A stretch of DNA of 59,717 nucleotides from a virus (Duplodnaviria > Caudoviricetes), in the IMG/VR virus record IMGVR_UViG_3300024331_000182, positions 1-59,717 of that record; one strand, 5' to 3'. The position numbers and the translations under genes were made by a program. Position 1 is the first letter of the stretch. Every line of letters begins with the position of its first letter. The notes beneath the pieces were generated by a model. That model was not told the DNA's origin and searched no databases. It saw only the letters and a list, made by a program, of their open reading frames with translations. Below are positions 1-58,169 of this stretch, piece by piece.

Positions 1-2311
1 TGCGGCCGAGCACGTCCAGGTCGTTGCCGAGCTGCCCGGCCTGAACCCCCATCGCCTTGTACGCGGCCGTGGTCGCCGCCACCTGGACCTTGATGATGTC
101 CCAGGCCGCCTTGCTCTTATCGAGGAGCTGGGACGTGGTGATGCCGGCCAGGTTCAGCACGCCGAGGGCCTGGGCCTGCCCGCCGTATTCCTTCGACAGC
201 CGGCCGACCCGGGTGGACACGAGCTGATACTGCTGGCCGAGCTGGGAGTGGGCGGTCTGGAGCGTGCGGACCACATCTTGCTGCGCCCGGTAGGCCGCCG
301 TGACCGAGCGGGTGACTTCGCCGCTCTTGAAGTTGACGCTGTTGGTGTACTGCTGGGTGTGCGCCAGCTTGGCCTGGGCTTCCGTCAGGTTGGCGGCTAC
401 CTGCGACTGGGCCGACCCGATGGAGTCGAGCAGGTTGGGGAGCCGGGCGTTCTGGATGGACTTCTGGAGGCCGTCCACGAAGTCCTGGGCGGAATTGTGC
501 GCGTTCCGGAACACGAATATCAGCCCTGTGATGGCCGCTGCGGCCAGGGTGATCCAGACCATGATCGGCACCCGGGACAGGATGAGCATGGCGTCGCTCA
601 GCAGCCCTGTGGCCGCCGCCGCCACGCCCTCGGAGGCGGCCATGCCCAGCATCACGCCCGTGTAGGTGATGAGGTTGGCGATCCCGCCGGCGATGGCGGT
701 GGCGAAGGTCTTGAGTGAGGTCAGGCCGACCAGGGTGACGGCCTTATTGAAGTTGAAGAAGGCGCCGGTCAGCTTGACCAGGCCGCCGACCATGGCCAGG
801 AACAGGGTGACTGCCGTGCCGCCGTAGATGAAGAACCCGTGCAGGAGGAGGCCGAAGGCGATGACCGGCTCGGCCGCCTGGGTGAACGCCTCGATGACCC
901 TGGTCATCCAGTCGCCCACCTTGAGCAGGATCTCCGCGTAGCCGGGGACGGCCCGGAAGACGGCGCCGAAGATGCCGCCGAAGTTGCCGATGGAGTCACC
1001 GAGCAGCCGCACGTCATCGACGGCGTTCTCCATGAACTTGTTAACCCCGGAGCCCGTGGTGACCGCGACGACGAACCGGGCGGCGAGCTGGTCCAGCACC
1101 TTGCCGGTCTGGGTGGCGACGGTGTTGAACGCCCCGCCCCGCTTGTTCATGAGGACCAGGGCGTCACCGAAAAGCTGGTACACCTCGGGCCGGACGGAAT
1201 CCCGGAGCTTGTCGAATCCGTGCGAGAGCTGGGGAAGGGTCCGGCCGGTAGCTGCTGCCTCAACCTGGACGGCCTTCATCCGGTTATAGATTTCCTTGGC
1301 CGCCTCGGACCCTGCGACGCCGAAGGCGGTTACCGCGATGATGGCCGGGGTCCACACGGCCACCGTCTCGATCACCGCGTCGGCCAGCAGGTGCCATACC
1401 GCCACCGAGGTAAACATCTTGGGCAGCACGCGGTTGAGCGCCCCGCCGAACAGGGTGAGGTGGCCGGTGAGCAGGCGCCAGCCGGCGGCCGAGGCCGTGG
1501 ATGCCCGGTTCGCGCTGGCGAAGAACACGTTCATCGCCGTCTCGGCGACCGGGAGTTCCTTCTTGCCCAGCTCGCCTACGGTGTGCTCGATCCCGAGCAG
1601 GGCGGCCTCGGCCGCGAGCAGCTTGCCCATGTCGATGTTGGCGCCGAGGCGGATGTCTTCCGCCTCCTGTTTCAGCCGCTTGACCTCGGCCTCGGACGCG
1701 GCGATCTGGGCGGTAAACGCCTTCCTGTCAGCATTGATCCGGACCGCGTTGGCGTTGGCCTTGAGGACTTTCAGCCTGGCTTCGATCGCGACGATGTTGG
1801 CCGCCGCCCGCTTGGAGTCGACTCCGGCGGGCATGTCCTTCAGGTCTTCGCGCAGGTGCGCTACGCGGGCGTTCAGGTCCGCGATCTGCGCGGCGGCCTT
1901 GGCGTCGTCGGCGTTGAGCGACAGCTTGCTCATCTTCTGCCGGAGGTCGGCGATCTGGGCCTGCTCCCTCGCGATGGCCGCGTCGATCTTCTTGGTATCG
2001 CCTCCCATCGTGAGGTTCGCCATCTGCCTGGCGAGAGTGGCCAGCCGGGCCTGGACCCGGGTGATGTTTGCCTCGGCCGGCTTGCTGTCCGCGTCGATCC
2101 GCAGCTCGGTCAGGCGGCCGGACATCGACTTGATCCGGGCCTGGAGGCTGGTCAGGGCGAGGTTGGCTTCCTTGGTATTGATCCCGAGCATGACGTTGGG
2201 CCGGAACCCGGCGAGCTGCTTGCGGAGCTGGACGTCAGCGAGCTGCCGGAAACCGGTGGAGTCCGGGTTGATGACGACGAAGACATCGCCGATGACCCTG
2301 CCGGTCGCCAT
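1..2311 (-). CDS. Tape measure protein, 5' part (runs off window edge)
   Basis: Not in the ORF track because it is open at the edge. ATG at 2311 behind GGGAGG; reads MATGRVIGDVFVVINPDSTGFRQ..., Ala-rich helical repeats then hydrophobic stretches; lies downstream of tail tube and chaperone. Confidence 0.85.
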   Translation of the reverse strand, partial: MATGRVIGDVFVVINPDSTGFRQLADVQLRKQLAGFRPNVMLGINTKEANLALTSLQARIKSMSGRLTELRIDADSKPAEANITRVQARLATLARQMANLTMGGDTKKIDAAIAREQAQIADLRQKMSKLSLNADDAKAAAQIADLNARVAHLREDLKDMPAGVDSKRAAANIVAIEARLKVLKANANAVRINADRKAFTAQIAASEAEVKRLKQEAEDIRLGANIDMGKLLAAEAALLGIEHTVGELGKKELPVAETAMNVFFASANRASTASAAGWRLLTGHLTLFGGALNRVLPKMFTSVAVWHLLADAVIETVAVWTPAIIAVTAFGVAGSEAAKEIYNRMKAVQVEAAATGRTLPQLSHGFDKLRDSVRPEVYQLFGDALVLMNKRGGAFNTVATQTGKVLDQLAARFVVAVTTGSGVNKFMENAVDDVRLLGDSIGNFGGIFGAVFRAVPGYAEILLKVGDWMTRVIEAFTQAAEPVIAFGLLLHGFFIYGGTAVTLFLAMVGGLVKLTGAFFNFNKAVTLVGLTSLKTFATAIAGGIANLITYTGVMLGMAASEGVAAAATGLLSDAMLILSRVPIMVWITLAAAAITGLIFVFRNAHNSAQDFVDGLQKSIQNARLPNLLDSIGSAQSQVAANLTEAQAKLAHTQQYTNSVNFKSGEVTRSVTAAYRAQQDVVRTLQTAHSQLGQQYQLVSTRVGRLSKEYGGQAQALGVLNLAGITTSQLLDKSKAAWDIIKVQVAATTAAYKAMGVQAGQLGNDLDVLGR

Positions 2312-2332
2312 CGGGTCAGCCTCCCGCCGCCA

Positions 2333-2713
2333 TCAGAAGATCCCCGCGATGGAGTCCAGGCCGGTGGTCAGGAACGGGTACCGGTCGTCCATCTGCCGGG
2401 CCGGGTACTCCAGGAAGATGCCGGGTGACCCGGGCGCGTTGGCGCCGCCGTACAGGCTCCCGGTGATCGTGCCCCGCCCCAGGTGCGGCCGGATGAGGGC
2501 CTTGGTGTAGCCGGGCGGGTGCGCGGTCGAACCCCGCCCGGCCCGGCGGCGGCGGTCCCGGGTCAGCGGGTCGCGGACGCGGACGACGGACCGGGCGACG
2601 TCGGCCACCTGGACGGACAGGTCCAGGAGCAGCTTCCCGACCGGTCCTTCCGGGGATTTCAGCAGCTCGTCCAGCGTCCTGTCGTCCCAGCGGATCTCGC
2701 CTGCGGTCGTCAT
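2333..2713 (-). CDS. HK97 gp10-like neck/tail-completion protein
   Basis: MTTAGEIRWDD...GPVG...IFLEYPARQMDDRYPFLTTGL fits the gp10-like pattern; ATGA overlap with the upstream frame. Confidence 0.6.
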   Translation of the reverse strand: MTTAGEIRWDDRTLDELLKSPEGPVGKLLLDLSVQVADVARSVVRVRDPLTRDRRRRAGRGSTAHPPGYTKALIRPHLGRGTITGSLYGGANAPGSPGIFLEYPARQMDDRYPFLTTGLDSIAGIF

Positions 2714-23322: not shown

Positions 23323-23397
23323 TCGGAGCGGGAGCCGCCCCGCCGCCGGTTAGTGACAGCCAGGCGGCCGGATCATGACGCGAGTTACCCTGGCCCC

Positions 23398-24558
23398 ATG
23401 ACACTGCCAGCATCAGCGTTCCCGCTCCGCGTCTCCGGGGCGAAGATCACGCGGGCCGACAACGGCCAGGCCATCCGGCTCGCCGGGGTGAACTGGGGCG
23501 GCGCCTACCAGGACAACCACGTCCCGTCCGGTCTGCGCGAGCGGCCCCGGAACGAGATCTACGACTGGATCGTAACCCGGGGATTCAACCACGTCCGGTT
23601 CCCGTTCGCCCTCGGCTCGTTCGTCACGAACGCCGGGAACCTGGTAACCGCCCCGGCCGACCCCGCCCGCCTGGCCGCCAACCCGGATCTGCGGGGGCTG
23701 AGCCCATGGGGCATTTACAAGGTCATGGTGGCCGAGATGACGGCCGCCGGGCTCTACGTCGTGCTGAACAAGCACCTCAGTTACCCGGGGTGGTGCTGTA
23801 GCAACGCCGACAACAACGGGCTCTGGTACAACGACAACTGGCCGTCGAGCACCTTCACCAACACCTGGGTCATGATCGCGCGGCAGTTCGCGGACAACCC
23901 CCTGGTCGGGTTCGACCTGCACAACGAGCCGCGCCCGGCCACGGTCGGCGGCGCGGTCCGGAACCCCTCCTGGGGCACCGGGGGCAGCGGCAGCTTCCCC
24001 ACCGACTTCCGCCTGATGTACCAGAACACGGCCGGCCGCATCCGCGCTGCCGTGCAGGACGAGGGGTCGGATATCACCCACCTGGTTTTCTGCGAGGGCC
24101 TGTCCTACGCGGGGGACCTGACCGGGTGGGGCGCGAACCCCGTGACAGGGGCGAACATCGTGGCCAGCGCGCACGACTACCCGTGGTTTCACCGCTACGC
24201 CGATAACAGTCCCCAGACCTGGGCGGATTACAGCGCCCAGAACCAGCGTAAGTTCGGGTACCTGGAGACCCGGGGCCTCGCGCCGGTCTGGATCAGTGAG
24301 TGCGGGTCCAACACCGACGCCAGCCGCGCCGACTTCAATCACGGGTGGTTCCCGAACTTCCGGCGCTGGGCCGCCGGGAACAGCTCGCACTGGTGCTGGT
24401 GGACGCTGGACGCGACCGAGCAGAAGGGCACCGAGCCGTCCACGAACAAGGTCAAGATAGGGGATGGCCAGGGTGAGGGATTCGGCCTGCTGCACGGCCA
24501 GGACTGGGGCGGCGAGCAGTCCGACGTGCTGGCTCTGCTGGCCCTGATCATGCCGTGA
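23398..24558 (+). CDS. Glycoside hydrolase family 5
   Basis: LAGVNWGG, GFNHVRFPF, DLHNEP (acid/base), AHDY, PVWISECG (nucleophile), WCWW. Confidence 0.9.
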   Translation: MTLPASAFPLRVSGAKITRADNGQAIRLAGVNWGGAYQDNHVPSGLRERPRNEIYDWIVTRGFNHVRFPFALGSFVTNAGNLVTAPADPARLAANPDLRGLSPWGIYKVMVAEMTAAGLYVVLNKHLSYPGWCCSNADNNGLWYNDNWPSSTFTNTWVMIARQFADNPLVGFDLHNEPRPATVGGAVRNPSWGTGGSGSFPTDFRLMYQNTAGRIRAAVQDEGSDITHLVFCEGLSYAGDLTGWGANPVTGANIVASAHDYPWFHRYADNSPQTWADYSAQNQRKFGYLETRGLAPVWISECGSNTDASRADFNHGWFPNFRRWAAGNSSHWCWWTLDATEQKGTEPSTNKVKIGDGQGEGFGLLHGQDWGGEQSDVLALLALIMP

Positions 24559-45009: not shown

Positions 45010-45273
45010 TCAGGCCATCGTATTACCTGACCAGCCGAACGTGCAGGCCCGGCACAGGTGCTTCCCGCCGTGGCCGGGCGCGGCCGAGCAGGTGTGCTCG
45101 CCATTCTTCTCCGGGCAGGTCTTCGCCATCGCCCGGCGCTTCTCCAGCACGAAAACCAGGTCACGCAGGTCATGCTCGCTCAGGGAGCTGATCACCCACG
45201 GGTTATGCCAGGGCCGGGTGAGCACCAGATCGTGCTCGCCGTCCACAGCGCTGTCGCGGACATCGACGTCCAT
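45010..45273 (-). CDS. Hypothetical protein with Cys/His motif
   Basis: HTC....GH.G.HLC..C; TGATG coupling. Confidence 0.5.
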   Translation of the reverse strand: MDVDVRDSAVDGEHDLVLTRPWHNPWVISSLSEHDLRDLVFVLEKRRAMAKTCPEKNGEHTCSAAPGHGGKHLCRACTFGWSGNTMA

Positions 45274-48532: not shown

Positions 48533-48603
48533 CTGACCGGAGTCAGCTAACACCGTAAACATTGCACGGCTGACGTATGTTTCGGTACGCCAGGAGACTG
48601 GTG

Positions 48604-48804
48604 TTACCCGTGGTAGAAGCTCAGGGTGACTCTCTTCGCCCCGTGGTAGAAGCTGCCCGGGATCTGCTTTGCCCCGTGGTAGAAGCTCGCCGGGGAGTGC
48701 GATGAGGCACGGAACACCGAGTGCCCGGTCGCGGCCAGGCCGGCTGCGGTAGCCAGGAAGCTGGCCAGGAGCGCGGTAATGATTACGAGGTTCTTACCCT
48801 TCAC
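48604..48804 (-). CDS. Secreted precursor peptide with three SFYHG repeats
   Basis: GGAGAGGG RBS, GTG start, basic plus hydrophobic signal, AGCTTCTACCACGGG three times at 33-nt spacing, stop right after the third. Confidence 0.75.
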   Translation of the reverse strand: MKGKNLVIITALLASFLATAAGLAATGHSVFRASSHSPASFYHGAKQIPGSFYHGAKRVTLSFYHG

Positions 48805-48884
48805 GGTTCCATCCCTCTCCGTGACGTGTCGGAACCCGAACGTAACATACGATCCTGTTCCGTGTCACCATCCGGGAACGGAGA

Positions 48885-48920
48885 GGAGCCCGACCCCCAT
48901 CCCTGCGGGGGCCGGGCTCC
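48885..48920 (-). terminator. Hairpin after the lectin-like gene
   Basis: GGAGCCCG...CGGGCTCC enclosing a CCCC/GGGG stem. Confidence 0.5.
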
Positions 48921-48944: not shown

Positions 48945-49646
48945 TCAGCTAGCGCCGCCGTTCCAGGCCCAGAGCTGGTTCGCGGTGAACGTAGAGACTC
49001 CGGCATCCACGAGCTGGCGCGTGTCCGGCACGGCGGCCGGGCCGAACGAGCTGGCATGGGACGTGTCCTGGACGTACAGGCCGAAGGCGACATTCCGCAG
49101 CGCGAACGGGTTGGGGCCGTTGCCGTTGTCGCGGATGCGGTCACCGTTGAAGCTGGCCACGCCGACTACCTCGGGCGTTCCGCCGACCACGGTCTGCTCT
49201 GCGATATACCGCTGGTACTGACCGCCGTTGCAGGTCCGCAGGGTGAGCTGATGCGTGCCGGTGTCGGCCACGCACAGATTGCTCCACACGCCGTTCGGAG
49301 CGTAGACGATCGAGTAGGACTTGGTACTGCTGTTCGAGGCCGACAGAGTGGGGACGACGCCGATGTGGAGCACCTTCACGAAGTCGGTGGCCTTGTCGGA
49401 CGGGCTGTTCGTTCCGTAGCCGATGACCGGGACGTTGGCCTTGGCGGTCGTGCCCTTGACGTCCCAGAACACGTCGTGCGGGGTGGGAGACTGGACGTTA
49501 TGGCCCGCGAAGGTTCCGCACTGGTCTCCGAATCCGCTCGCGCACGCCACGGTCGTGGCGCTGGCAGCCGGAGCGCCTGCGAGCGCGAAGCCCCCGGCTA
49601 CGGCTGCCGCGCCGGCGAGCGCGAAGTAACGCTTGTTCAGCTTCAT
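48945..49646 (-). CDS. Secreted ricin-B-like lectin protein
   Basis: Signal peptide ending ASA; NLCVAD...LTLRTCNGGQYQRY; NQLW. Confidence 0.65.
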   Translation of the reverse strand: MKLNKRYFALAGAAAVAGGFALAGAPAASATTVACASGFGDQCGTFAGHNVQSPTPHDVFWDVKGTTAKANVPVIGYGTNSPSDKATDFVKVLHIGVVPTLSASNSSTKSYSIVYAPNGVWSNLCVADTGTHQLTLRTCNGGQYQRYIAEQTVVGGTPEVVGVASFNGDRIRDNGNGPNPFALRNVAFGLYVQDTSHASSFGPAAVPDTRQLVDAGVSTFTANQLWAWNGGAS

Positions 49647-49756: not shown

Positions 49757-49993
49757 CTACGCAGCCGGGCGTAACCGCCGGATTCGCTCATATTCGCTCA
49801 GCCGCCAGCACAGCCAGGCGAAGCTCCCGGTGGACAGGACAGTCGCGATCAGGGCAGGCACCCAGGCTCCTGTCAGGCCTGCGTAGTACATCGCATTGGC
49901 CACGCGGCCGATGAGGGCGATGATTCCCAGGACCACCAGGAACGCGGCGATATCCAGAACAGCCCTGTCGGCCGGGCTCCGGTACTTCCTCAT
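49757..49993 (-). CDS. Small two-helix membrane protein
   Basis: Hydrophobic; ATGA coupling. Confidence 0.5.
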   Translation of the reverse strand: MRKYRSPADRAVLDIAAFLVVLGIIALIGRVANAMYYAGLTGAWVPALIATVLSTGSFAWLCWRLSEYERIRRLRPAA

Positions 49994-50685
49994 CCGAGCG
50001 CCCAGGCCGCGCGCAGCAGCCGGAAGATACTCCAGCGGCGCCGTAGGACCACGCGGGTGATGTCGGCAGCCTCCCGGAGCCGGGCCGGGGTCCGGGACCC
50101 GGCGTGGTACCAGATGTAGCCGTTGCGCTCGCGGTAGTAGCAGGACTTGATCTCGTTGTGCTCATCGCACAGCAGGCCGAGGTTGAGCAGGGTGGTCAGG
50201 AACCCCGCGATCCAGGGCTTGCCGTGGTCGACGTGCAGGCATCTCTTCCGCCAGATCCCGTCCCTGCCCTGCCGCTGGGGCAGCATGGCCAGCTCGGCGG
50301 CGGTAATGCCGCAGTACAGGCACCGGTTCCGGTCCATGGCGAAGGTAACGCGGCGCAGGCTGGCGGTGATGACAGCGGACTTGCAGTGCTCCCGGCCGTG
50401 GCGGCGGCGATGGCTGATCCGCCACTGCCGGAACGGGCCGCCGATGATGACGGCGGGCAGGCAGAACAGGATGAACACCACGGCGGCGGGGATGACGACC
50501 AGCCCGGCGGCGGTCATGACGGCGAGCCCGGCCCAGTGCAGCGGCTCGCCCAGGTACAGCCATCCGCCCAGCGGGGCCGCGACGCCGGGGCCGAAGGTGA
50601 ACGAGCGGGATAGCGTGTAGTTCCGGTACTTCCGCCTCTTCCGGGCCGGGCGGCGGTAGGCGAGACGCCTGGCCAGGGTGCTCAT
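49990..50685 (-). CDS. Membrane-anchored HNH endonuclease-like protein
   Basis: Hydrophobic N-half; LRR.....D.NRCLYCG, LHVDH.KP, NL..LC..HN..K. Confidence 0.75.
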   Translation of the reverse strand: MSTLARRLAYRRPARKRRKYRNYTLSRSFTFGPGVAAPLGGWLYLGEPLHWAGLAVMTAAGLVVIPAAVVFILFCLPAVIIGGPFRQWRISHRRRHGREHCKSAVITASLRRVTFAMDRNRCLYCGITAAELAMLPQRQGRDGIWRKRCLHVDHGKPWIAGFLTTLLNLGLLCDEHNEIKSCYYRERNGYIWYHAGSRTPARLREAADITRVVLRRRWSIFRLLRAAWALG

Positions 50686-50870
50686 GAGACCACCCACTCC
50701 TCCAGCAGGTCCGCGAACCACTGCGCGTACGTTGTCCCGTCGCCGCTGTCATCGAAGGCGTGGTCCTTCTCCTCGTTGTCGAACCGGCGGACCAGCTCTA
50801 TCGTCCGGCCTCTCAGGGACAGGCCCGGATCGACCGGCGGCGGGACCCCGGCCCGGACTTTCCCGCTCAC
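50682..50870 (-). CDS. Small hypothetical protein
   Basis: Coupled on both sides. Confidence 0.4.
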   Translation of the reverse strand: MSGKVRAGVPPPVDPGLSLRGRTIELVRRFDNEEKDHAFDDSGDGTTYAQWFADLLEEWVVS

Positions 50871-51322
50871 GAGCCGGACCTCGCCGGGAGCGTGACGATC
50901 ACGAGATCGACGGGGGCGTCCTGATACGGGTGCAGGCACGTGATCAGGTCATCCGGGGTGAGGCCGCCGATCCCGCAGCCGATCAGCGGCATGGCGACCC
51001 GGGTGATCTTGAAATCGTGGTAAGCCTCGGTGATCATCCGGCCCACGGCGGCGGTGATCATCCACGGCTTCGCATCCGGGCCGGGCCGGTCCTGGGTGGC
51101 CAGGTTAAACACCACCAGGCCGCCTGGCTCGCGCCAGGGCAGGATCTCGCCGGGCAGCATCTCGCCCCGCAGGCACCGCCGCCGGTACGACTCGAACATC
51201 CTCGGGTGACGCTGCCGGAACTGGACGGCGATCCCGGCGCCCATGACGCCCCGGCAGTTGACGCCGTGCGCTAGCGCCGAGGCGTCGCAGGCGAACAGGT
51301 CGCCCTCGGTGAACGAGATCAT
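50867..51322 (-). CDS. Macrodomain ADP-ribose hydrolase (TARG1/DarG/SCO6735-like)
   Basis: GDLF, AHGVNC.GVMGAGIA, FNLATQ, AMPLIGCGIGGL. Confidence 0.88.
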   Translation of the reverse strand: MISFTEGDLFACDASALAHGVNCRGVMGAGIAVQFRQRHPRMFESYRRRCLRGEMLPGEILPWREPGGLVVFNLATQDRPGPDAKPWMITAAVGRMITEAYHDFKITRVAMPLIGCGIGGLTPDDLITCLHPYQDAPVDLVIVTLPARSGS

Positions 51323-51512
51323 CCCCGCACCTCCGGTTCCGGCGCCGGCCACTGCTCGCCGGCGGGCTCGGCCGGGTGCACGGTCCTGCCGTCCCGCTCG
51401 CTGAACAGCATGCCGTTCAGGTGAACCGAATAGCCCACGTCCGCCGGGAGCCCGCCCCGCAGCGCGGTATCCGCGAACCGGGCCTCGGCCGGGCTGGTCG
51501 TGCTGACGATAA

Positions 51513-52338: not shown

Positions 52339-52757
52339 CCGGGCACCTCCTCCCTGGTCTCCGGCACCCGGTCGCCTTCTGTGCCGGCGGGCAGCCGCTT
52401 CCCTGGGTAGACGGCCGGGGATAGATCCGGGTCGTTCCCGGACCCCGGGGCGGCCGTGGCCTGCGCGGCTGCGGGCTGCGATCCGGGCAGCGGGGTCAGG
52501 TCGATACCCTCGCGGCTGCGGCGGACAGGGGGCGGACGACCGGAGACGGCCCGCGCCGTCAGGGTCACGATGGCGTACCCGGCCAGGACCAGGAGCACGG
52601 CCGCCGTCTCGCGGGCAGCCTGGGCGAGGGCCGCCGCGTGCTTCTGCGCCCAGGGAGCGCCGGACACGGCGACGATGAACAGGATGACGGCCCCGGCGAG
52701 GAGCACGGGGCTGCACTGGAGCCGGGCGCAGGACCGGCGTATCCGCTCTGCGATCAC
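52335..52757 (-). CDS. Membrane protein
   Basis: Two hydrophobic helices; GTGA-coupled to the FtsK-like gene. Confidence 0.5.
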   Translation of the reverse strand: MIAERIRRSCARLQCSPVLLAGAVILFIVAVSGAPWAQKHAAALAQAARETAAVLLVLAGYAIVTLTARAVSGRPPPVRRSREGIDLTPLPGSQPAAAQATAAPGSGNDPDLSPAVYPGKRLPAGTEGDRVPETREEVPG

Positions 52758-54916
52758 AGGTCGTCCTCCTCGTATCCCCCGGGTCCGTCGTCTGCCAGCG
52801 GCTCCGCGTCACCCGCCTGCCTGACCCAGATCCACCGGTTGTACGGGTTGTTGCCGATCTCGCTGCTGCGGCGGACCCGGCCCAGTTCCTTGTCGTCCCG
52901 GAGCCAGTCGTGCAGGGTGCCCCGGTGCACGCGCAGGTCCGGGTTCCCGGTGGCACCGGCCTCGGCGGTCAGCGTCTTGTGCAGGGTGCCCACGGTCAGC
53001 CCGTGCAGCCCGGCCCGGAACAGCAGCTCGCGCATCCGGCGCCGGGCCGGGTGGATCTTCCCCGAAGGGTCATCGGGGTCGGTCAGCCTGGCCGTGATCT
53101 CGGCCCAGGCGGCATCCAGGTCGCTGTCCCGTCCGGCGCCGTCTCCGGCATCACCGCCAGGGCTCCCGCCGGGCGGGTCCGTGACCGCTGCCGGACGGGG
53201 CTTAGCGTCGCCGCCGGGAACAGGGCCGTCGTAGATCCCGATGTCCGGGTCGGCCTTCCACTCGGCGGCGGTATCCCGCCACATGTCCATCTGGGCCTCG
53301 ATCCGCTTCCAGCGGTCCGCGTACGCCTCGCCCATCGCGGCTTCCGTGAGCGGATCGGGGACGGGACGGCGGGGGCCGGTCTGCCGGGCGATGTGGTACG
53401 CCAGCCTCGGGGTCACCCGGTAGAAGTGAACCGGGGAGGACATCCTGCCCTTGAGCAGGACCAGGCCGGCCCCCTCGTCCTGGATCTTGGACAGCAGCTT
53501 GGCGTGGGCGTTGTCGTCGGGGAAGATCGACCGGGCGTCATCGGACTGGCTGACCCGCAGGCCGACCCGGGCGAGCACCTGGGCCTTGATGGCGGACAGG
53601 CCCATCGTCTCCACGTCGCCCCGGACGGACGCGAACACGACCGTGAGCGCCTCCGACCGGTACGTCTCGATGAGGCGGGCGATCAGGACGGCCATGTCCC
53701 GGCTGCTGATCCCCTCGTCCTTGCGGCCGTGGCCGGTGGCGACGACGGTCTCGTCCATGACCAGGGTGATGCCCGGCAGGGTCCGGCGCGGGGTGATCTT
53801 CTCACCGCCCGCACCCTGCTGGCCGCGTGCGTCGCCGGCCGCGATCAGCGTCTCCAGCATCAGCTTGGCCTCGGCCCGGGTGGTGGCCACCCAGTCGATG
53901 ACCGGCCGCCGGATGCCGCCCGGGTCCTCCACCCAGGGCATGATCCAGGGCCGGGACATCCGGCCGCCGCCACCCTTGAGGTCGATGCAGAAAACCAGCT
54001 CGTCCTCGCACCAGGCGAGGTTCCCGATGAACACGTTGAGCAGGTTGGACTTGCCGGACCCGATGACCCCGACGATCATCACGGCGATCTCGCGGAGCAG
54101 CAGCCGGAACGGGCGGCCGTTGTCGTGCAGCCCGAGATCCAGCGGCTCGTTGACGGTCGTCCACCGGGTCCGCTCGGGCAGGAAAGCGACCTGGCGCTTG
54201 CCCTTGCGGGTGCGCAGGCTCGCGATGAACTCAGCCGAGTTGTCCGGGTTGGGCTGCTCGAAGGTAACCGCGTCGGCTGCCAGCCGCAGGTCGGTTGCCA
54301 GCTCGGGGCCGAGGTCCCGGAGCCGGTCGAAGGTGACGACGCCGTGCTCGTCGGTGGCCTTGCCGAGCATCCCGTACACCTGGATGCCGTTGGAGTGCTT
54401 GCGAACCTCGGTGATGCGGATGCCCCGGACGCCGAGCTGGGCGAACTTGATTACCCAGCGCTCCATCTCGGCCTGGCGCCGGGCGCGCTCCTCGGCCTCA
54501 GCATCACGGCTGCCCAGCGCCCGGTAGTTGGCGATCACGGGCGGGCCGAACGGGGTGAGGATGACGAACCCGAGCACGAGGGCGGCGAGCATATCGGCCG
54601 TCCACGGCCCGATCATCCGGGCTCCGGTGAACCAGGCCGTCAGGAACGCGCCCCAGCAGAGCAGCCAGCCGGACAGGCCGCCGGACCCGGTGATGCGCAG
54701 GGTCACCCACCAGATGACGCCGGCGAGCACGCCCAGGATGCCGCTCACCTCCCACAGCGGGACCCTGGCCGGGAGGAGCCAGGCACCGAACAGCACGACG
54801 GCCGAGACGATGACGGCCGTCTCGATGACATGCCACCACAGGTCGCGGCCGACCGGGACGGGCTTGCGTTCAGGCCGGGGGGCCGGCGGGAGCCGCTTTA
54901 CCGGGTCGTGCATCAT
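52754..54916 (-). CDS. FtsK/SpoIIIE-family DNA translocase, TraB-like
   Basis: Four N-terminal TM helices; GVIGSGKS Walker A, IDLKGG, LVMDE Walker B; C-terminal winged-helix-like segment. Confidence 0.85.
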   Translation of the reverse strand: MMHDPVKRLPPAPRPERKPVPVGRDLWWHVIETAVIVSAVVLFGAWLLPARVPLWEVSGILGVLAGVIWWVTLRITGSGGLSGWLLCWGAFLTAWFTGARMIGPWTADMLAALVLGFVILTPFGPPVIANYRALGSRDAEAEERARRQAEMERWVIKFAQLGVRGIRITEVRKHSNGIQVYGMLGKATDEHGVVTFDRLRDLGPELATDLRLAADAVTFEQPNPDNSAEFIASLRTRKGKRQVAFLPERTRWTTVNEPLDLGLHDNGRPFRLLLREIAVMIVGVIGSGKSNLLNVFIGNLAWCEDELVFCIDLKGGGGRMSRPWIMPWVEDPGGIRRPVIDWVATTRAEAKLMLETLIAAGDARGQQGAGGEKITPRRTLPGITLVMDETVVATGHGRKDEGISSRDMAVLIARLIETYRSEALTVVFASVRGDVETMGLSAIKAQVLARVGLRVSQSDDARSIFPDDNAHAKLLSKIQDEGAGLVLLKGRMSSPVHFYRVTPRLAYHIARQTGPRRPVPDPLTEAAMGEAYADRWKRIEAQMDMWRDTAAEWKADPDIGIYDGPVPGGDAKPRPAAVTDPPGGSPGGDAGDGAGRDSDLDAAWAEITARLTDPDDPSGKIHPARRRMRELLFRAGLHGLTVGTLHKTLTAEAGATGNPDLRVHRGTLHDWLRDDKELGRVRRSSEIGNNPYNRWIWVRQAGDAEPLADDGPGGYEEDDL

Positions 54917-57199: not shown

Positions 57200-58169
57200 C
57201 CTGGCCGCCCAGTCCTGCCGCCGCCCGCTCCAGCACGCTCTTGGCGATCCGGCGGCGGGTCATGTCAGAGTTGTCCGCGCCCAGGATCTCGTGATCCGCC
57301 AGGCTCCGCGCGAGCTGGCGCTGGCGGGGGAGCGGGGCGCCCGCCTGGATCAGCTCGTCCACCAGCCCGGCCTCAGCCTCGATCCGGGCCGCCGTCAGCC
57401 CCCTTCCCCGGGCCTTGGCGCGACCATCGGCAGCGGCGGCTTCTGGTCGCGGCTCCCGGATCGGGGGAACTGACGGCGGCGTCTTGCGGGCAGTGGCCTT
57501 GTCCCGGGAGCGCCGGTCCTGCCCGGGGGTACCCGGGTAGACGAGCTGGATTGCCTCCTCGATCCGGTTCTCGCCCTTCCAGGTCGCGGCCCGCATGACG
57601 CGGATGCACCGGTAGGCGTGGTAGAACCAGCGGTTGGCGCCGAGCCGGACGGCGTGGTCCTCGATCAGCTTCTTCGCCTTGAGGGCGGGGCGGCTGACAC
57701 GGCGCGAGTAGGCGGTCCACAGCCACGGCGAGATCACGCTCATCATGCCGAACGTGACGGCCGCGACAGTGGGCCGCCAGCCCGGCTTCATGTAGTGGCT
57801 GTAATTCAGGACGCCGATGACCAGGGCGGTCCCGTAAGCGGCCAGCCGGAGCCGCAGCGCGGAGTCATCCGCGACGAGAGCGAGATTGGCAAGCCAGGCG
57901 AGGTAGATGGCGATGGATTCCAGCGCGACGGCTACCAGGAGCGCATCGGTCCGGTCCAGATGGGCCTGCCAGAACCGGAGCTGGGCTCGGAAGGCCACGT
58001 AGTTGACGATGACGACGGGAACGGCGGCCAGCCAGGCGCGATGCGCGCGGCCCTGGCTCGTTCCGGTCGGCCGGAACGTCTCGAAGGCGGCGCCGAGAGA
58101 CAGCAGCGCGGCCGTGATGATCTCGGTCCTGCGGTCTTTCCGCAGATCGGATGCCGTTCTATCCTTCAC
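57180..58169 (-). CDS. DUF2637/Spd-like membrane protein
   Basis: Four TM helices (VAVALESIAIYL, LRLAAY, LNYSH, SPWLW) then a helical C-terminus; typical company of TraB. Confidence 0.6.
   Translation of the reverse strand: MKDRTASDLRKDRRTEIITAALLSLGAAFETFRPTGTSQGRAHRAWLAAVPVVIVNYVAFRAQLRFWQAHLDRTDALLVAVALESIAIYLAWLANLALVADDSALRLRLAAYGTALVIGVLNYSHYMKPGWRPTVAAVTFGMMSVISPWLWTAYSRRVSRPALKAKKLIEDHAVRLGANRWFYHAYRCIRVMRAATWKGENRIEEAIQLVYPGTPGQDRRSRDKATARKTPPSVPPIREPRPEAAAADGRAKARGRGLTAARIEAEAGLVDELIQAGAPLPRQRQLARSLADHEILGADNSDMTRRRIAKSVLERAAAGLGGQDVRDRA

Follow-up and report, generated by a model that had tools for sequence, protein, structure and literature searches.

To our knowledge, peptide communication among phages, of which the arbitrium and Rap-Phr systems are examples, is known only in Bacillota. 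Sec-exported Phr propeptides with C-terminal pheromones, tandemly duplicated in one to four copies, are established in Bacillus phages (PMC11343458). A receptor gene next to the propeptide gene is the defining feature of RRNPPA systems, with propeptides of 50–120 residues (PMC11343458). Signal peptidase removes the Sec signal of such propeptides, and the mature peptides of 5–10 residues lie at their C-terminal end. Signalling in Actinomycetota is attributed to small molecules (PMC10075063).

The phage gene analysed here resembles the genes for Phr and AimP, including the tandem Phr of phi3T and phi105, in several respects. Its 66-residue product lies within the range of 50–120 residues given in the text cited above, and its relatives measure 48–65 residues (PMC11343458). 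The precursor has a predicted Sec-type N-terminus and a short unit at its extreme C-terminus; like Phr it occurs in phages, and the sequence of the unit differs from lineage to lineage. As in Phr, this unit is repeated, with one to three identical or near-identical copies here versus one to four in the Phr propeptides covered by that text (PMC11343458). In contrast to RRNPPA systems, no TPR receptor gene adjoins the gene in either of the two phages that carry it; its neighbours encode a methyltransferase and a secreted protein in one case and tRNAs in the other. Further differences from Phr and AimP are the carriers, actinophages of high GC and probably actinobacteria instead of Bacillota, the lack of sequence similarity, and the chemistry of the core (aromatic/His-aromatic/His-His-Gly), which differs from that of known Phr or arbitrium peptides. 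On this analogy, the relation appears to be one of likeness of working, not of membership. Read from the sequence, the architecture seems to be of a known kind, that of a multi-copy exported propeptide; what appears to be new is the phylum, the core chemistry and a stand-alone gene with no cognate receptor beside it.

The peptide gene and the phage that carries it

The window, by which we mean the whole 59,717-bp stretch of DNA that was analysed, is an IMG/VR virus record with a GC content of about 69% and a completeness of 28% as estimated by CheckV. It carries genes for capsid, prohead protease, portal and large terminase. The best matches of the terminase come from phages of Rhodococcus, Arthrobacter, Mycobacterium and Gordonia (about 33% identity), and we therefore consider the window phage to be an actinophage. 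The record also contains a large sugar-modification cluster (5956–32066) with several glycosyltransferases, two NAD epimerase/dehydratases, a C-methyltransferase, a cupin and other methyltransferases; a GH5 cellulase-family protein (23353–24558) is encoded within it.

The peptide reads MKGKNLVIITALLASFLATAAGLAATGHSVFRASSHSPA-SFYHG-AKQIPG-SFYHG-AKRVTL-SFYHG and is followed by TAA, with the residues SPA immediately preceding the first core (Table 1). The GC contents of the three codon positions (0.55/0.51/0.85) match the coding pattern of the window, and together with the GGAGAGGGA element and a hairpin that separates the open reading frame from the upstream gene they mark it as a gene. This hairpin lies between the stop of the upstream gene (48945) and the peptide gene and leaves a leader of 80 nt. 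The whole 151-nt leader folds with a z-score of −2.9; scans for promoter and terminator consensus sequences found no sites, and the hairpin was not called. All three cores are encoded by one 15-nt sequence, AGC TTC TAC CAC GGG, at a spacing of 33 nt. A 13-nt core motif occurs exactly three times in the window, each time inside the peptide gene. The two spacers have 2 of 6 residues in common.

In the N-terminus, an n-region of charge +2 is accompanied by 23 uncharged, hydrophobic residues in a row and by several small(-3,-1) sites, as judged by a rule-based check and not by SignalP. AlphaFold2, run on a family alignment of 26 rows, predicts a helix for residues 4–26 (pLDDT 71–77), with values of about 47–56 for the remainder. 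As modelled, residues 1–27 would be a signal peptide of the Sec type or, as a further possibility, an anchor that stays uncleaved. The original prediction had described the 66-residue frame, its ribosome-binding site and its series of cores and spacers, and these were confirmed in every particular. Its further statements that the N-terminus is of the signal type, that identical cores alternate with diverged spacers and that the gene has its own leader after a hairpin agree with our observations as well.

Contigs from four other soil runs contain a single variant within the gene, A39G, which falls in the linker just before core 1; the population in those runs is too uniform to say more on selection. 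An 11-nt inverted repeat, CGTAACATACG, flanks the gene at 48574–48584 and 48841–48851 with one mismatch in the other arm; with 2 matches against 0.31 expected, and 2 reached in 3 of 100 shuffles, it may be due to chance.

Table 1. Positions of the peptide gene, its parts and associated elements (window coordinates unless a contig is named).
Feature	Position	Strand	Basis or remark
Peptide gene, multi-core, predicted to be exported	48604..48804	-	66 aa, GTG start, TAA stop; codon-position GC, homologues
Residues 1-27: n-region MKGK and hydrophobic stretch with small(-3,-1) sites	48724..48804	-	rule-based check; AlphaFold2 helix
Linker, residues 28-39, HSVFRASSHSPA	48688..48723	-	
Core 1, SFYHG	48673..48687	-	
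Spacer 1, AKQIPG	48655..48672	-	
Core 2, SFYHG	48640..48654	-	
Spacer 2, AKRVTL	48622..48639	-	
Core 3, SFYHG	48607..48621	-	stop codon directly after
Shine-Dalgarno-like GGAGAGGGA	48812..48820	-	8-16 nt 5' of GTG
15-bp GC-rich hairpin after the upstream 233-aa gene	48885..48920	-	terminator-like, without a T run
CCATTCATGATC repeats	L176:1040-1140 and aligned parts of L107, L133, L156, L157		alignment A3, columns 440-520

Relatives of the peptide and the constancy of the core

Searches with the window peptide itself returned nothing but the query, whether by tblastn against 50,697 phage records, by a word-index search and a back-translated scan of viral contigs, or by tblastn against plasmids and a search of the Atlas. 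The searches of phage records and viral contigs were empty because the relatives share no five-residue word with the window peptide. A DNA pattern for two FYHG units led to a second phage (L002/L003; G771), whose 63-residue open reading frame has a GGAGG site, is strongly hydrophobic at its N-terminus and ends FFYHG-SAATPL-FFYHG-stop. A profile search of 1.84 billion representatives found a protein of 60 residues (P0007) with a window-like N-terminus and the end ASFYHG-MKKILP-ASFYHG-stop. From a pattern scan of metagenomes we obtained 100 stretches, of which five have the L002 form and seven (L107, L133, L143, L156, L157, L176 and L202) a new form of 49–50 residues, MSKKIKRAILVTATVVGLAAGTMGAVAAG-TTFYHG-TKTVVADSG-TFYHG-stop. 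L156 and L176 carry in addition a paralogue that ends ...SAMHYHG-QPVAVRPM-MHYHG-stop. The others were noise, and most of the 100 stretches were 40-codon open frames without a start codon, on contigs of GC 0.39–0.44, and were set aside. A word-index profile search based on eight members gave 35 proteins, of which 34 had E ≤ 4.1e-4; P0037, P0035, P0022 and P0017 are encoded on contigs of 268, 21, 11 and 10.8 kb. The metagenome relatives form about 30 clusters of 48–65-residue peptides on high-GC contigs, and three Atlas clusters near the 49-residue form hold 103, 68 and 61 members, the third being labelled Actinomycetota. The original prediction had named a lack of homologues with a conserved core as grounds for its own refutation, and such homologues do exist.

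None of the family peptides gave a meaningful match to a Pfam, NCBIfam or PHROG model, and in the full text of the literature the core motif matched only unrelated abbreviations. By its sequence relationships, we judge that the window peptide is a phage-borne member of an undescribed and unannotated family. P0002, P0016 and P0012 had no tblastn match among phages or plasmids, and P0007, P0016 and P0012 no relatives among the viral contigs of IMG/VR. The strict FYHG...FYHG pattern yielded 69 stretches in 185,579 species genomes, none with an in-frame, signal-bearing small open reading frame that ends at the core. Two samples of 401 genomes gave one weak and unconvincing match to the profile (phylum sample) and one match to the pattern that was not at a stop codon (class sample). 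No family member was found in Streptosporangium (G001), no open reading frame with such an end in Microbacterium phage Magritte, and no Rfam match at eight loci. Since the metagenome forms were not found in IMG/VR, in plasmids, in the species genomes by the strict pattern or in either sample, their carriers seem to be poorly represented among sequenced genomes.

Several candidates were rejected. Among eight hmmsearch hits, P0006 and P0008–P0011 are unrelated repeat proteins, P0009 being judged by its size. A degenerate scan of viral contigs returned 33 stretches. Only L002 and L003 among them are family members, the others being low-GC repeat proteins or low-complexity frames; the 22 stretches from the last viral scan contained no new member. 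The pattern also picks out a different family of low-GC phage proteins of about 350–380 residues (L004, L005, L007–L010, L013–L015, L018, L019, L022, L023, L027, L028, L030, L032 and L033), in which long GFYHGFYHGF(T/S)HYAG repeats rich in aromatic residues, His and Gly are followed by a conserved C-terminal domain (…YTINCEPYD.FFT…).

A member of the peptide family has between one and three cores that fit x-[F/Y/H]-[F/Y/H]-H-G, with a His at core position 3 that is invariant in 12 of 12 architectures. The last core forms the end of the protein in 34 of 38 family sequences, five of the 38 being near-identical copies of the window's protein, and the free C-terminus after the Gly looks like part of the core unit. 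Because independent homologues keep the core at this same C-terminal place, the repeat is not due to chance. The N-terminus is of the signal type in all 11 members examined by the rule-based check (n-region of +2 to +7, uncharged stretch of 22–34 residues, small(-3,-1) sites at its end), and every family gene examined has a GGAGG-type ribosome-binding site. The spacing between cores varies from 11 to 16 residues, and this speaks against a fixed period, whether structural or for DNA binding.

The first and last cores are identical as 5-mers in 8 of the 12 distinct architectures (SFYHG, FFYHG, TFYHG, MHYHG, MHFHG, MFHHG, MYHHG and VYHHG). Shuffled sets gave a mean of 0.83 and reached eight in none of 100000 trials, a test that counts related sequences and so overstates independence. 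In the gene of L002 and in both genes of L176 (L176a and L176b) the core copies differ at synonymous sites, so what keeps them identical is constraint on the protein, not gene conversion. Among the metagenome forms, variation in the core falls on its first three positions, with the His unchanged, and the residues that precede the second core (VA-D/G-S-D/G) are kept across core types. A homologous spacer that is common to different core types indicates that the two-core layout is older than the changes in the core, and this combination of a variable peptide with a conserved pro-region resembles pheromone precursors. The original prediction had taken the constancy of the cores as a sign of selection. 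From these comparisons, in which the copies co-vary between lineages as in pheromone precursors, the view that selection acts on the core is much better founded.

Neighbouring genes in phages and metagenome contigs

In the window, the peptide gene lies between a convergent gene for a C5 DNA methyltransferase downstream and an unrelated gene for a secreted-type protein of 233 residues upstream. The latter (48945–49646, minus strand) has an N-terminus clearly of the signal type and, close to its C-terminus, the motif QLWAW; it has no relative in Pfam, PHROG, PDB or viral contigs, and its single-sequence fold has a pLDDT of 30.8. Further upstream, three genes on the minus strand (49990–50721, 50867–51352 and 52754–54916) encode membrane-spanning HNH endonuclease-like, Macro-domain and FtsK/SpoIIIE-like proteins.

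The second phage, G771, comprises 77 kb at a completeness of 53% (CheckV estimate), and Microbacterium phage Magritte is the nearest cultured relative of its portal. Here the peptide gene is the only open reading frame inside an array of 36 tRNAs (L002 6418–11327), lies on the opposite strand and ends one base before tRNA-Arg. The 28% completeness of the 59.7-kb window and the 36-tRNA array suggest that these phages are large and may be lytic. Four further genes of G771 (L215:907-2676(-), L214:9811-10305(-), L214:8580-9398(-) and L213:8942-9562(+)) encode haem-peroxidase-like (An_peroxidase), Lsr2-like, LysM plus transglycosylase (Rpf-like) and DivIVA-like proteins.

The structural genes suggest different actinophage groups for the two phages, and the neighbours of the peptide gene are wholly different. 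A comparison of 109 window open reading frame calls with 136 from G771 found only one other shared protein, of 87 residues (window 45010–45273, G771 57447–57692, both minus strand; 50% identity, E 1e-20). We therefore regard the peptide gene as a mobile, self-contained unit. Neither the 77 window open reading frames scanned with Pfam nor 61 from G771 include a TPR/HTH or RRNPP-like receptor, an integrase, a maturase, a P450, a radical-SAM enzyme or a dedicated protease, where the two records cover an estimated 28% and 53% of the genomes (CheckV). For the window, the original prediction had already reported that no such receptor or maturase is visible, as the Pfam scan bears out. Its proposal that the peptide controls lysis, lysogeny or transfer finds no support among these genes, which include no integrase or lysogeny genes. 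Its comparison with Phr and AimP stands as far as the layout with a repeated C-terminal unit is concerned; it does not extend to an adjacent receptor gene.

On the metagenome contigs, the neighbours of the peptide genes look chromosomal. L176 carries an MHYHG-type gene (2147–2341, minus strand) and a TFYHG-type gene (1209–1358, plus strand), convergent paralogues about 800 bp apart, and L156 is syntenic. On both contigs, a gene for an AAA_16 regulator of the LAL/MalT type (E 2.1e-23) is divergent from the MHYHG gene; this regulator is a candidate sensor. On L143, an HTH_31 regulator is encoded near the peptide gene. Upstream of the TFYHG gene, a conserved region of 500 nt with no Rfam match contains GTGATCATT and, at intervals of about 22 nt, three direct repeats of CCATTCATGATC. 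These repeats have an operator-like look and suggest tight regulation.

Possible functions of the peptide

We tentatively prefer to read the gene as one for a Sec-exported propeptide that yields short ligands ending in His-Gly, with a build like that of Phr and AimP and encoded as a stand-alone gene. For the steps from export to reception we infer the following course. The precursor would be exported by the Sec system and lose its signal peptide, after which extracellular proteases would release short peptides ending ...His-Gly-COOH. The product of the window phage would be SFYHG or a slightly longer form, with up to three copies per precursor. Calculated [M+H]+ values are 610.262 for SFYHG, 1204.611 and 1278.695 for the 11-mers, and 4477.213 or 4548.250 for an intact 41-42-mer. 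Once released, such peptides would act as diffusible ligands, that is, as a signal. Their receptor would more likely be a host-encoded sensor, or one far off in the phage genome, than an adjacent cognate receptor. For copies that stand alone in their phages, a sensor encoded by the host requires fewer assumptions, and genes of this kind are also present in high-GC organisms that are most likely actinobacterial.

We favour a signal over the alternatives because the last core is placed strictly at the C-terminus, the number of copies varies, the cores are identical within a precursor and different between lineages, and a folded domain is lacking; the two paralogous genes beside the divergent AAA_16 regulator on L176 and L156 also speak for it. 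Against a signal count the lack of an adjacent receptor gene in both phages and the fact that peptide quorum sensing is not established in Actinomycetota (PMC10075063). Other features counted against it point in two further directions. The cores are rich in His and, except in VYHHG, have Met at position -1 when they contain two His, which also fits metal binding; and the hydrophobic stretch of 20–25 residues is long enough for a membrane anchor. The main alternative, possible if rather doubtful, is that the intact mature peptide is the product, an unstructured extracellular His/aromatic repeat of about 40 residues in the window and about 22 in the metagenome forms that binds metal (Cu, Ni or Zn) or a small ligand through His-Gly-COOH and aromatic side chains. 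The invariant core His in all 12 architectures, the many two-His cores (HYHG, HFHG, FHHG, YHHG), the Met before four of the five identical-pair two-His cores, additional His in the linkers (HSVFRASSH in the window, RTPHH in P0027, HHH in P0015) and the mature region that AlphaFold2 predicts to be unstructured are all consistent with such a role. Repeated His-Gly with aromatic residues, Met before two-His cores and a region predicted to be unstructured are also likenesses to copper-binding repeats such as the prion octarepeat, Mets motifs and the HWHG of multicopper oxidases. We take the H-aromatic-H-G of the cores to resemble the copper-ligand motif of the oxidases, and their His-Gly repeats presumably recall the octarepeat. 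However, FYHG cores, those of the window among them, contain a single His and a Phe that is no ligand; identical copies and a last copy strictly at the C-terminus are not needed for a generic metal site; and no metal transporter, metal regulator or other metal-handling gene adjoins any member whose neighbours were examined. In a further and unlikely explanation, the signal anchor stays uncleaved. The repeat tail of a small N-in/C-out membrane protein would then be exposed on the cell surface, where it might, for instance, exclude superinfecting phages, modify the envelope or set the time of lysis. The mean hydropathy of 2.95 over 22 residues in the L002 peptide is typical of membrane helices, the AlphaFold2 model has one continuous helix, and a stand-alone gene fits a phage moron. 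Against this explanation speak the small(-3,-1) sites, which all 11 members examined have kept where the hydrophobic stretch ends, and the first core of the metagenome forms, which begins 2–5 residues past these sites and would be buried at the membrane if the peptide were uncleaved. Unlike the small membrane proteins of holin and lysis cassettes, the window gene is not flanked by an endolysin; no lysin family occurs within 5 kb on either side.

Multi-core RiPP precursors typically have identical repeated cores with diverged spacers between them. The original prediction had offered such a precursor as an alternative to a signal, and in this case an enzyme from elsewhere, encoded by the host or by a distant phage gene, would cross-link the Tyr and His of the cores or modify them in another way. 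Like precursors of the cyanobactin, triceptide and biarylitide (Tyr/His cross-linked) types, the peptide has identical short cores, with aromatic residues and His that could be cross-linked. The haem-peroxidase-like protein of G771 is encoded about 11 kb from the peptide gene (An_peroxidase, E 2.1e-7) and is of uncertain relevance. Because RiPPs are modified in the cytoplasm, their leaders do not normally carry Sec signals, whereas a signal-type N-terminus is present in all members examined. Moreover, no P450, radical-SAM enzyme, YcaO, cyclase or dedicated protease is found near the gene in the window, G771 or contigs L107–L202, and no neighbour is conserved between contexts; we consider a RiPP precursor improbable. 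Finally, the three window cores are identical in DNA and 33 nt apart, as could also be expected of a chance open reading frame over a protein-binding DNA repeat or of a decaying fragment, and none of the 12 runs listed for the sequence is an RNA data set. That there is no functional peptide gene at all is nevertheless highly improbable. The homologues keep the peptide while they differ at synonymous sites and in the 11–16-residue spacing; the codon-position GC, the ribosome-binding site and a stop right after the Gly are kept across unrelated contexts; and apart from A39G the gene is identical in the contigs of the four other soil runs.

A bolder extension of the exported signal, which we put forward as speculative, is that x-[F/Y/H]-[F/Y/H]-H-G peptides serve high-GC Gram-positive bacteria as pheromones, which would make them the first genetically encoded family of this kind in that group. 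Each lineage would have its own "pherotype", the same in all copies of a precursor, and large soil actinophages would have acquired stand-alone signal genes with which to address or mislead the sensing of their hosts. If so, a captured signal might hold neighbouring mycelium in a phage-susceptible state or report the density of infection, with no need for a phage-borne receptor. Even if the peptide is not a signal, the family is unannotated and yet recurrent, as the sizes of the Atlas clusters illustrate. It is a compact and searchable family of multi-core peptides with predicted export, common to unrelated actinophages and high-GC metagenome organisms, in which the cores co-vary. Through synthetic pentapeptides and one gene of 200 bp, it may provide a cheap handle on peptide signalling, or on a new class of secreted metal-binding peptides, in Actinomycetota, and it could show whether such peptides are exploited by actinobacterial viruses.
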